NCBI RefSeq assembly: GCF_003991155.1
Contig: NZ_CP031293.1
Reading direction: 5' to 3' (one strand)
Source: Escherichia coli
Lineage (GTDB): Bacteria > Pseudomonadota > Gammaproteobacteria > Enterobacterales > Enterobacteriaceae
Length of the DNA stretch: 64,000 nt
Position 1 is the first letter of the stretch; the number at the start of each line of letters is the position of its first letter. Under the pieces are notes generated by a model that saw nothing but the letters and a program-made list of their open reading frames with translations, was not told where the DNA came from and did no database searches. Positions 20,651-24,852 of the stretch are shown here, in pieces. The translations under genes were made by a program, and so were the position numbers.

Positions 20651-21393
20651 TGCAGACCCAGGTCCTTTTTGAACATCCACTAAATGAAAAAATGCGTACA
20701 TGGCTGCGCATTGAGTTTTTGATTCAGCAACTCACCGTTAATCTACCCATCGTTGACCACGCTGGCGCGCTGCATTTCTTCCGTAATGTCAGTGAATTAC
20801 TGGATGTTTTCGAGCGCGGCGAAGTCCGCACTGAGCTGTTGAAAGAACTTGACCGGCAGCAACGTAAACTCCAGACCTGGATTGGCGTGCCTGGCGTGGA
20901 CCAGAGCCGTATTGAAGCATTAATTCAGCAGTTAAAAGCGGCGGGGAGCGTATTAATTTCCGCGCCGCGTATCGGGCAATTTCTGCGTGAAGATCGTTTG
21001 ATTGCTCTGGTGCGTCAGCGACTGAGCATCCCAGGCGGCTGTTGTAGCTTTGATTTACCTACATTGCACATTTGGCTGCATCTACCCCAGGCGCAGCGCG
21101 ACAGCCAGGTAGAAACCTGGATTGCCAGCCTGAACCCGCTCACCCAGGCACTTACCATGGTGCTGGATTTAATTCGCCAGTCGGCCCCCTTCCGTAAACA
21201 AACCAGCCTGAATGGTTTTTATCAGGATAACGGTGGCGATGCCGACTTGCTGCGCCTGAATCTGTCACTCGATTCACAGCTTTATCCGCAAATTTCCGGT
21301 CATAAGAGCCGTTTTGCCATTCGTTTTATGCCGCTGGACAGTGAAAACGGACAGGTACCAGAACGTCTGGATTTCGAACTGGCCTGTTGCTAA
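20650..21393 (+). CDS. zapD: cell division factor ZapD (YacF)
   Basis: 247-aa [27 protein letters not shown]... Confidence 0.93.
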
Positions 21394-21402
21394 GGAGTAA
21401 AA

Positions 21403-21600
21403 ATGTCAGAAACTATTACGGTGAATTGCCCAACCTGCGGGAAAACGGTGGTGTGGGGTGAAATCAGCCCGTTTCGGCCATTTTGTTCCAAACGTTGCCA
21501 GCTGATCGACCTCGGAGAATGGGCTGCTGAAGAAAAACGAATCCCCAGCAGTGGCGATCTTTCCGAAAGCGATGACTGGAGCGAAGAGCCAAAGCAGTGA
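21403..21600 (+). CDS. yacG: DNA gyrase inhibitor YacG (zinc-finger)
   Basis: 65-aa ORF with CPTCGK...CSKRC zinc ribbon. Confidence 0.9.
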
Positions 21601-21610
21601 CATTTTGTCT

Positions 21611-21697
21611 GATGCGACGCTGGCCTGATAAGACGCGGGCAGCGTCGCATCAGGCATCGTGTGCAAATGTCGGATGCGGCATAAACACCTATCCGAC
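21611..21697. repeat. two REP palindromic units between yacG and mutT; the second overlaps the mutT 3' end
   Basis: gatgcgacgctggcctgataagacgcgggcagcgtcgcatc and gtcggatgcggcataaacacctatccgac. Confidence 0.7.
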
Positions 21698-22087
21698 GTA
21701 CACGCGCTTAAGCTTCGCAATTACCGGTTCATTGGCTGGCGGAAACTCATCGGCATTAAGACCGACCAGCGACATCCACTTACCGGGTTGCCCTTCTTTA
21801 CCCCACGGCTCCCCTTCCCAGCTTTCGACCAGCCAGAACCACAGAGTTATATGCCTGTCCGGGAATTCATATTCCAGTTTTTCAAATAGCGAAAAATGTT
21901 GTGGGGTAATCCCGACCTCTTCCTGAAGTTCACGCACCACCGCCTGTTCCGGCGTTTCGCTCATTTCAATTTTACCGCCGGGAAACTCCAGTTTATTCGC
22001 CATGTGCGCATCTGCTGCGCGACGGGTTATAAAGATTTCATTGTTCTCGTTGCGAATAATACCTACCGCAATTTGCAGCTTTTTCAT
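21689..22087 (-). CDS. mutT: 8-oxo-dGTP diphosphatase (Nudix)
   Basis: 132-aa ORF with Nudix box GGKIEMSETPEQAVVRELQEEVGI; C-terminus (…KRVYVG) runs into the REP unit. Confidence 0.93.
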   Translation of the reverse strand: MKKLQIAVGIIRNENNEIFITRRAADAHMANKLEFPGGKIEMSETPEQAVVRELQEEVGITPQHFSLFEKLEYEFPDRHITLWFWLVESWEGEPWGKEGQPGKWMSLVGLNADEFPPANEPVIAKLKRVYVG

Positions 22088-22099
22088 TGTCTTAAACCT

Positions 22100-22127
22100 A
22101 TAAAAAAGGCGCAGAATCCTGCGCCTT
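22100..22127 (-). terminator. rho-independent terminator downstream of secA
   Basis: On the minus strand, hairpin aaggcgcag-gatt-ctgcgcctt followed by TTTTTT. Confidence 0.6.
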
Positions 22128-22146
22128 TTACTTCAACTGTTAGCTT

Positions 22147-24852
22147 TTATTGCAGGCGACCATGGCACTGCTTGTATTTTTTACCAGAACCGCACGGGCA
22201 AGGATCGTTACGTCCTACTTTGCGCTCACCGGTTTGCGCCGCCAGTGCAGCTGCAGCTGCAGAGTCGTCATCCTGATGGCTAAGCTGCTGCATTTGCGCT
22301 AAACGCTCGGCTTCCATACGACGCTGTTGTTCCAGCTCCTCAACCTCTTCAGGCATACGTACCTGAACTTTGCTCAGCGTGCTGATAACTTCATATTTCA
22401 ACGACTCCAGCATCGCTGCAAACATGGAGAACGATTCACGTTTGTATTCCTGCTTCGGATCTTTCTGTGCATAGCCACGCAGGTGGATACCCTGACGCAG
22501 ATAGTCCATCGCCGCCAGGTGCTCTTTCCACAGAGAGTCGAGAGTTTGCAGCATGACGCCTTTTTCGAAGTGACGCATCATCTCAGCACCAACCACTTCT
22601 TCTTTACGCTGATACACTTCGATGGACTGCGCCAGAATGCGCTCACGCAGCGTCTCTTCATGCAGTTCTGGTTCTTTATCCAGCCACTCGGCAATTGGCA
22701 AATCGAGGTCGAAATCGTTCTTCAGACGTTCCTGCAGTCCCGGAATATCCCACATTTCTTCCAGCGACTGTGGCGGAATGTAGGCATCAATGGTCGCTTT
22801 GAACACATCTTCACGAATGCTGTTGATGGTTTCGCTCACATCGCTGACATCCAGCAGTTCGTTACGCTGGGAGTAAATGGCGCGACGCTGATCGTTAGCC
22901 ACGTCATCATATTCCAGCAGTTGCTTACGAATGTCGAAGTTACGACTTTCAACTTTACGCTGGGCGTTGGCAATCGCTTTAGTCACCCACGGGTGTTCAA
23001 TGGCTTCGCCTGGCTTCATACCCAGTTTACGCATCATGCCGGATACTCGGTCGGAAGCAAAAATACGCATCAGCGCATCTTCCATCGACAGGTAGAAACG
23101 GGAAGAACCAGCATCCCCCTGACGACCAGAACGACCGCGCAACTGGTTATCGATACGACGGGATTCGTGACGTTCAGTACCGATGATATGCAGGCCACCT
23201 GCTTCCAGTACCGCATCGTGACGAACCTGCCAGTCGGCCTTAATTTTTTCAATTTGCTCTGCGGTCGGATTTTCCAGCGCGGCAACTTCTGCCTGCCAGC
23301 TACCACCGAGCACAATATCTGTACCACGACCCGCCATGTTGGTCGCGATAGTCACCGCAGCCGGATAACCTGCCTGAGCAACAATCGCCGCTTCGTTGGC
23401 ATGGAATTTGGCGTTCAGGACGTTGTGCTTAATACCGGCTTTGGTCAGTTCGTTTGACACCAGCTCAGATTTTTCGATGGAGATAGTACCCACCAGCACC
23501 GGCTGGCCTTTCGCAGTACGTTCTTTGATATCTTCAATGATCGCCTGAATTTTTTCCGCTTCAGTCATGTAGACCAGGTCCGGCAGATCTTTACGAATCA
23601 TTGGACGGTTGGTCGGAACAACGACGGTATCCAGCTTGTAGATGGAGCTGAATTCGAAAGCTTCGGTATCAGCAGTACCGGTCATCCCCGCCAGTTTTTC
23701 ATACAGACGGAAGTAGTTCTGGAAGGTGATCGAAGCCAGCGTTTGGTTTTCGTTCTGGATCTGCACACCTTCTTTCGCTTCCACAGCCTGGTGCAGACCA
23801 TCGGACCAGCGACGCCCCTGCATGGTACGACCGGTGTGTTCGTCAACGATGATAACTTCACCATCTTTAACGATGTAGTCGACGTCTCGGGTAAACAGCG
23901 CATGAGCGCGCAGCGCCGCCGTTACGTGGTGCATCAGCATGATGTTTGCCGGAGAGTACAGAGACTCCCCTTCATCCATGATGCCTTCTTTCACCAGCAG
24001 TTCTTCAATCAGCACCAGACCACGTTCGGTCAGGTTCACCTGGCGAGATTTTTCGTCCACCGAGAAGTGGCCTTCGCCCTGGAAGGTTTCGGAGTCTTCT
24101 TTTTCCTGACGGATCAGGTGTGGAATAATTTTATTCACGCGTTTATACATTTCCGAGCTGTCTTCTGCCGGGCCGGAAATGATCAGCGGTGTACGCGCTT
24201 CATCGATCAGGATGGAGTCCACTTCGTCCACCAGCGCATAGTGCAGTTTACGCTGTACACGTTCTTCAGGACTGAACGCCATGTTGTCGCGCAGGTAGTC
24301 AAAGCCGTATTCGTTGTTCGTACCGTAAGTGATGTCAGCTGCGTAAGCTTCACGCTTTGCCGGTGCTGGCATGCCCGGCAGGTTGATACCAACAGTCAGG
24401 CCAAGGAATTCAAACAGCGGACGGTTGTTTTCGGCGTCACGTTGCGCCAGGTAGTCGTTGACGGTAACTACATGCACGCCTTTACCGGTTAGTGCGTTCA
24501 GGTAAGCAGGCAGCGTTGCGGTCAGGGTTTTACCTTCACCGGTACGCATTTCGGCGATGCAGCGTTCGTTAAGAACCATACCGCCGAGTAACTGAACGTC
24601 GAAGTGACGCATACCAAAAACACGCTTACTGGCTTCACGCACCACAGCGAAGGCTTCCGGGATCAAGTTTTCCAGCACTTCGCCTTTTTCCAGACGCGCG
24701 CGGAACTCTGCGGTTTTCCCTTTCAGTTCTTCATCGGAGAGTTTTTCCATCTCCGGTTCCATGGCATTGATGATGTTGACCACTTTGCGCATCCGGCGCA
24801 GGGTGCGATCGTTACGACTACCGAAAACTTTAGTTAATAATTTGATTAGCAT
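22147..24852 (-). CDS. secA: preprotein translocase ATPase SecA
   Basis: 901-aa [26 protein letters not shown]...; C-terminal zinc-binding [14 protein letters not shown]. Confidence 0.97.

Follow-up and report, generated by a model that had tools for sequence, protein, structure and literature searches.

In the 64,000-nucleotide stretch of Escherichia coli DNA analysed here (the window), mutT ends inside a y-type REP unit, with the last three codons of the gene and its stop codon made of REP sequence. Compared with K-12, the allele reads as a stop-loss that runs on to an in-frame backup stop carried by the REP itself. We regard the explanation as a whole as very likely: a BIME fills the gap between mutT and yacG, mutT ends in its y unit, an ancestral GTAG stop has been lost, the added tail is tolerated, and the REP has roles at the mRNA 3' end.

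The REP cluster at the 3' end of mutT

The region is chromosomal. The genes coaE, zapD and yacG lie on the plus strand and converge with mutT and secA on the minus strand (Table 1). The 88 nt at 21601-21688, between the yacG and mutT stop codons, are a REP cluster, with palindromic sequence throughout. In the ORF listing the mutT product is 132 aa long and ends in EPVIAKLKRVYVG, followed by TAG. This protein scores 244.4 bits against the equivalog model NCBIfam NF008044 (cutoff 148) and 224.5 bits against TIGR00586 (cutoff 97.9), and the 129-residue chain of PDB 1MUT aligns with its residues 1-129. The Nudix box has the motif GX5EX7REUXEEXGU and, read directly from the translation, is intact in the window: G38-KIEMS-E44-TPEQAVV-R52 E53 L Q E56 E57 V G59 I. 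An identical CDS is annotated as mutT (WP_000736040.1) in NZ_CP033635. The MutT of K-12 (P08337; PDB 1MUT, 3A6S and others) is the product of the same gene in the same place, with secA-mutT facing yacG-zapD-coaE, and over residues 1-128 it is identical to the window protein except for G43S, R89S, E103K and D114E. Beyond that point the window protein differs by L129V and a three-residue YVG extension, which makes it 132 aa rather than 129 aa. Of the internal differences, G43S marks a variable position inside the Nudix box, and S89 is common to most of the non-K-12 alleles that we sampled. A strong Rfam match to STnc40, a candidate sRNA of Salmonella (81.7 bits, gathering score 45), lies at 22102-22171 on the minus strand, directly before the start of mutT; it takes in the secA 3' end and the spacer that separates secA from mutT.

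Table 1 Features at the mutT-yacG junction, in window coordinates
Feature	Position	Strand	Basis and remarks
yacG (DNA gyrase inhibitor)	21403..21600	+	NCBIfam NF001638, 130 bits; convergent with mutT
Extra partial z2 arm	21606..21625	+	Begins 6 nt past the yacG stop; inverted repeat of 20 nt, 90% complementarity
z2-type REP unit	21622..21655	+	Score 29 against the Z2 consensus, near-perfect; inverted repeat; inverse to the y unit
Whole BIME, Rfam naRNA4 (RF02564) match	21622..21698	-	61.2 bits against a gathering score of 59.5; model positions 1-77, full length
BIME linker, joining the z2 and y units	21656..21668	.	13 nt
y-type REP palindromic unit	21669..21701	-	Consensus alignment, inverted repeat, RNA folds; GTAG strand on the mutT mRNA
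REP-derived mutT end	21689..21701	-	Third base of Val129, Tyr130, Val131, Gly132, TAG; K-12 alignment, codon tables
REP tetranucleotide position	21698..21701	-	GTAG in the REP, GTAC here; its TAG is the mutT stop in K-12
mutT CDS (8-oxo-dGTP diphosphatase)	21689..22087	-	132 codons + TAG; ORF listing, NCBIfam, PDB 1MUT alignment
mutT end codons	K 21707-09, R 21704-06, V 21701-03, Y 21698-700, V 21695-97, G 21692-94, stop 21689-91	-	

An earlier note, made from the sequence alone, had placed a palindrome at 21669-21697 and claimed that the last codons of mutT overlap a REP. The palindrome is real. It consists of a 7-bp perfect outer stem, formed by GTCGGAT (21669-75) and ATCCGAC (21691-97) with 100% complementarity, and a 3-bp inner stem, and it is matched by both the REP consensus and the Rfam naRNA4 model. 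The overlap likewise stands, and the 7-bp stem includes the first base of the mutT stop codon. Counted with its tetranucleotide position, which takes the unit to 21701, the y unit shares 13 nt with the mutT CDS including the stop, and these 13 nt hold the extra codons; it is thus not strictly extragenic. In K-12 the REP overlaps mutT by 3 nt, the stop codon itself. Folding of 130 nt of the mutT strand gave z = -3.75.

Alignment of 21671-21701 with the published E. coli REP consensus GCCGGATGCGGCGTGAACGCCTTATCCGGCCTAC matched at 26 of 32 positions with one gap. The alignment score was 19, and 110-nt stretches elsewhere in the 64-kb window scored at most 14, barring the REP cluster and a REP at 3912-3945. 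No match in the whole window was obtained with an IUPAC REP pattern of fixed spacing, even when 3 mismatches were allowed, because loop length varies and the window copy is decayed; REPs were then sought by half-site fuzzy matching and local alignment. Within the window, which alone was scanned, these searches located the mutT-yacG cluster and the one canonical copy at 3912-3945. The latter is also y-type and has an intact GTAG (tGTAGGTCGGATAAGGCGTTTACGCCGCATCCGGC); it is intergenic and overlaps no long ORF end. The y unit at mutT has GTAC where the conserved GTAG is expected 5' of the stem foot, and the orthologous unit of K-12 has GTAG. The window unit is a decayed copy of a true REP and a member of the class by descent.

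The z2 unit and the y unit lie in inverse orientation on either side of the linker and together form a BIME, whose copy number varies among strains. As an independent check we used the Rfam naRNA4 model, which is built on a REP Z2+Y unit; the window BIME passes its gathering threshold marginally. The extra partial z2 arm next to yacG and the stretch 21637-21656 pair in a long hairpin of the yacG transcript, and the plus-strand fold that includes this arm has a predicted energy of -63.8 kcal/mol (z = -6.3). A consensus scan of 21300-22200 for intrinsic terminators, meaning a hairpin followed by a T-run, found none in the mutT-yacG spacer. The REPs of this spacer are not classic hairpin-plus-T-run terminators.

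E. coli strains differ in how many BIME units they have between mutT and yacG, with one in the window and two in K-12. The stop-to-stop gap between the two genes is 87-90, 98-99 or 201-215 nt in E. coli, and 331 nt in a second Escherichia species representative (L023). In K-12 the linker between the units contains TATCAATGAGTTA, which fits the IHF consensus WATCAANNNNTTR. In strain B1_2 (NZ_CP074764; positions 1-400 of locus L011) a copy of IS621, an IS110-family element, sits inside the mutT-yacG REP cluster, and its end adjoins GGCCTGATAAG of the z2 unit precisely at the expected GTAG site. IS621 targets REPs, and this insertion agrees with that.

Loss of the GTAG stop in E. coli

The K-12 protein (NC_000913) has 129 aa and ends in ...AKLKRL before a TAG stop. 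The ...KRL ending that the earlier note gave for K-12 is therefore correct, and alignment of the two genes bears out its claim that the C-termini differ, with KRVYVG in the window against KRL. Shared C-terminal residues in K-12, which would have told against that claim, were looked for and are not there. The K-12 codons read cgt ctg TAG gtc aga TAA, and those of the window read cgc gtg TAC gtc gga TAG. In K-12, too, the stop comes from the REP: it is the TAG of the conserved GTAG 5' of the stem. This tetranucleotide is highly conserved and is needed for binding and cleavage by TnpA_REP (PMC3333891). In the REP consensus GTAGGCCGGATAAG, the TAG of GTAG and the TAA of GATAAG, which is the complement of the REP motif CTTATC, are 9 nt apart and hence in the same frame, so that a REP abutting a gene in frame gives it a stop and, three codons on, a second one in reserve. 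The window protein has 132 aa because a point mutation (GTAG to GTAC) removed the K-12 stop. Its stop is TAG because a 1-nt deletion turns GATAAG into GATAG; most other 132-aa alleles, without the deletion, have TAA at the same codon.

We propose that the ancestral allele would have been K-12-like, stopping at the TAG of the REP's GTAG and encoding 129 aa ending in ...KRL. The change from GTAG to GTAC, with a linked change of Leu129 (CTG) to Val (GTG), would have abolished this stop. The ribosome would then read Tyr-Val-Gly from the 5' arm of the REP stem and halt at the GATAAG motif (GATAG here). The GTAT found in other lineages may be an intermediate towards GTAC.

Both allele classes are common. 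The 561-nt yacG-mutT stretch around the finding was found in 5424 of the 5426 complete E. coli genomes; 4 of its 6404 matching places were on records labelled plasmid. We sampled 18 E. coli genomes in even steps down the ranking of matches to this stretch, and nine had a 399-nt mutT (132 aa) and nine a 390-nt mutT (129 aa). Codons 129-130 were ctg TAG in all of the 129-aa alleles and gtg TAT or gtg TAC in all of the 132-aa alleles, whose tails varied among YVG, YAG and YVE. A census of the 5426 complete genomes was then made with exact 28-mer seeds in queries of 30-33 nt, every seed spanning the diagnostic codons. The 129-aa form was represented by the K-12 haplotype (1787 genomes) and a second haplotype (1370 genomes). 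The 132-aa form was represented by TAT with "aaa ctt" (937 genomes), TAT with "aag ctt" (647 genomes, O157:H7 among them), and TAC in the exact 33-nt window haplotype (206 genomes). The 132-aa form is thus present in at least 1790 of 5426 genomes (33%) and the 129-aa form in at least 3157 (58%), with 479 genomes (9%) in neither haplotype set. The 132-aa form is one of the major alleles in E. coli, already catalogued as WP_000736040.1 and not peculiar to the window strain.

Three outgroup-like sequences bear on the direction of change, and all have a stop at codon 130. These are E. whittamii (L045), which reads ctt TAA gtc gga taa, and two that read ctg TAG, namely the second Escherichia species representative (L023) and a divergent E. 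coli with 92% identity (L012). Together with the GTAG of the REP consensus, these stops point to 129 aa as the state that would have followed the arrival of the REP, and to 132 aa as the stop-loss derivative. The pattern scan of species-representative genomes did not recover E. albertii or E. fergusonii. The 132-aa allele is also present in several distinct haplotypes, which could mean an old polymorphism instead of a simple recent derivation.

The reverse order, in which 132 aa is ancestral and a nonsense mutation (TAT to TAG) shortened the protein to its K-12 form, recreating GTAG by chance, would accommodate these divergent 132-aa haplotypes, including that of O157:H7 and the one found in 937 genomes. 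It is also compatible with the two linked differences between the allele classes, which could mark two old haplotypes. It has against it the codon-130 stop in three of three outgroup-like sequences, and it would have the REP arrive without the intact GTAG that its transposase requires (PMC3333891). Moreover, the 129-aa alleles match the consensus at the tetranucleotide and the 132-aa alleles do not. We consider this reverse order unlikely, and retain the stop-loss from 129 to 132 aa as our reading.

The 132-aa haplotype is set apart from the 129-aa one by two substitutions, C to G at -6 and G to T at -1, which on the mutT strand fall immediately 5' of the REP stem. In a comparison of window positions 21698-21706 with the linker, 21656-21668 (alleles L005 and L091), both substitutions turn a mismatch into a Watson-Crick pair, so that the hairpin gains length at its foot; in the window a subsequent T to C change at -1 disrupts that new pair. 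A single continuous quasi-palindrome template switch as the origin of the 132-aa haplotype is excluded, because positions -3 to -5 are not converted. The paired pattern is a weak hint, with a rough chance of about 0.02 and no supported mechanism; the two changes may be independent events, a matter of chance, or the outcome of selection acting on the hairpin.

Recurrence and MutT tails in the Enterobacteriaceae

A pattern scan of species-representative genomes gave 78 Enterobacteriaceae mutT loci, 33 of which have a REP-like 5' half near the end of mutT. In 13 of these 33 the mutT stop is at the GTAG position, for example in Enterobacter species with ccg TAG GCCTGCTAAGCG. In a further five the stop is the internal TAA of the REP, reached after three REP-encoded codons; these proteins end in KAC (three loci), QAG (Citrobacter amalonaticus) or KVG (Klebsiella spallanzanii). 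The REP starts 0-15 nt past the mutT stop in 14 loci and further away in one. The architecture seen in the window thus recurs in other genera and has arisen repeatedly. The reading in the earlier note, of REP sequence supplying the 3' end of a coding region, is supported.

Nineteen of the 78 loci are REP-less, in genera that include Buttiauxella, Cedecea, Franconibacter and Yokenella (loci including L015, L017, L025, L035, L038, L044, L051, L052, L060, L063, L065, L071, L075, L086, L088 and L090). Here the stop codons of mutT and yacG overlap or abut without a spacer, mostly sharing TTAA. With no spacer between the genes, an inserted palindromic element must rewrite one or both gene ends. Past the conserved FPPAN..I..L segment, MutT tails vary in both length and sequence across genera, a pattern that fits weak constraint on the tail. 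One sequence outside this family by its label, a 424-nt contig (QXHL01000193.1, coverage 0.83) from an assembly labelled Alicyclobacillaceae, carries a Salmonella-like mutT 3' end, ...RKLRQFAP followed by a stop. Its presence in a Firmicute assembly is almost certainly contamination.

The three extra residues in the window are probably a tolerated, effectively neutral tail, and the variant is probably harmless. We weighed the possibility that Tyr-Val-Gly is an adaptive extension that alters the activity, stability or partner binding of MutT. The tail is frequent (at least 33% of genomes), persists in successful lineages and is always accompanied by Leu129Val, as might be expected of a selected feature, but its residues vary by lineage and their sequence is dictated by the REP stem. 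The tail also lies past the last residue of the solved 129-aa structure, in a protein whose C-termini differ in length and sequence across the Enterobacteriaceae. From the fold and helix layout we take it to be far from the Nudix box as well, which we count as a further point against adaptation. An adaptive role is therefore very unlikely in our view.

That the extension is an artefact, either a sequencing or assembly error or a miscalled stop, is effectively refuted: repeats are error-prone and the window REP has a 1-nt deletion relative to K-12, but the exact 33-nt haplotype is in 206 complete genomes, the 561-nt region is 100% identical to that of NZ_CP033635 (strain ECCNB12-2), the exact protein, named MutT, is on at least 1000 public contigs, and the stop-loss is independent of the deletion, since alleles that lack it end at the same codon with TAA.

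Roles at the mRNA 3' end and known REP systems

For the stop-loss allele and its K-12 counterpart alike, the position of the hairpin relative to the stop may matter for expression. Work on REPs placed less than 16 nt from a stop codon reports stalling of the terminating ribosome and reduced translation (Liang, Rudd and Deutscher, Mol Cell 58:431, 2015, as relayed by PMC12306157). REPs between convergent genes are described as two-way terminators and/or decay blocks, and their presence correlates with increased expression of the gene pair (Harris et al. 2026, bioRxiv 10.64898/2026.03.23.713779). By analogy, the BIME between mutT and yacG would work in both directions at the 3' ends of the convergent transcripts, holding back exonucleases and terminating part of the transcription. 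At mutT the hairpin is within the 16-nt distance: it starts directly after the stop in the 129-aa allele, and in the 132-aa allele it contains the first base of the stop, as the last base of the 5' arm of the stem. Because it touches or contains the stop codon, the hairpin would belong to the class that, as far as PMC12306157 describes it, stalls terminating ribosomes and cuts protein output. With a stop base inside the stem, a ribosome on the 132-aa allele would have to melt the stem to terminate.

Loss of GTAG (to GTAC) should also end recognition of the y unit by TnpA_REP, again by analogy. One could go further and treat the change from GTAG to GTAY as a three-way switch, which at once lengthens MutT, removes transposase recognition and shifts termination off the hairpin foot and into the stem. 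We offer this only as a speculation, and an improbable one. If the shift in termination alters ribosome stalling or the protection of the mRNA 3' end, the two alleles would set different levels of MutT, and slightly different A:T to C:G mutation rates among E. coli lineages would then be possible. If the position of the stop relative to the hairpin affects MutT output, it would provide a natural handle on the expression of an antimutator gene.

Much of this is already known or catalogued. That applies to REPs and BIMEs and the way their numbers vary, to the nearness of REPs to stop codons, and to the MutT allele of 132 aa. A literature search on mutT and REP gave irrelevant REP-PCR typing papers and no published account of the mutT REP case. 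The case is a small, tidy example of known things and matters little alone. It does indicate that REPs are not always strictly extragenic, which is mildly against general statements in recent REP papers. It also draws attention to the two in-frame stops of the REP consensus, GTAG and GATAAG, by which an abutting REP can give a gene both a stop and a backup, and it suggests that REP decay can alter the C-terminus of a protein harmlessly. For annotation, it accounts for a MutT of 129 aa in K-12 and 132 aa in about one third of E. coli, including O157:H7, and for the wide differences in the MutT C-terminus between enterobacterial genera.

The closest known systems are the E. coli REPs and BIMEs themselves (y, z1 and z2 units; Bachellier et al.; Ton-Hoang et al. 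2012, PMC3333891). The window cluster shares with them the imperfect palindromes of about 33 nt, the inverse arrangement, the short linker and the location at convergent gene 3' ends. REPs are described as extragenic, whereas the y unit here overlaps mutT by 13 nt, and it departs from the E. coli REP in having GTAC for GTAG, several stem and loop substitutions, and the 1-nt deletion. With the class of Liang et al., as it is presented in PMC12306157, the mutT REP shares the distance to the stop codon; in that description the REP is downstream of the stop, and in the window the stop is within the REP. The other marks of that class are ribosome stalling, cleavage of the mRNA and tmRNA tagging, with less protein made. 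A third comparison is with naRNA4/REP325 (RF02564; Qian et al. 2015, PMC4550694; Harris et al. 2026), which has the same Z2+Y two-hairpin unit. As a class, naRNA4 is a processed, stable RNA that binds HU. The 2026 preprint of Harris et al. now describes REP325 as a 3'UTR element that both terminates transcription and stabilises mRNA, and it questions the nucleoid role. The naRNA4 match in the window mainly indicates an ordinary BIME. REP325 is a cluster of six units between tandem genes, whereas the window element is a single unit between convergent genes.
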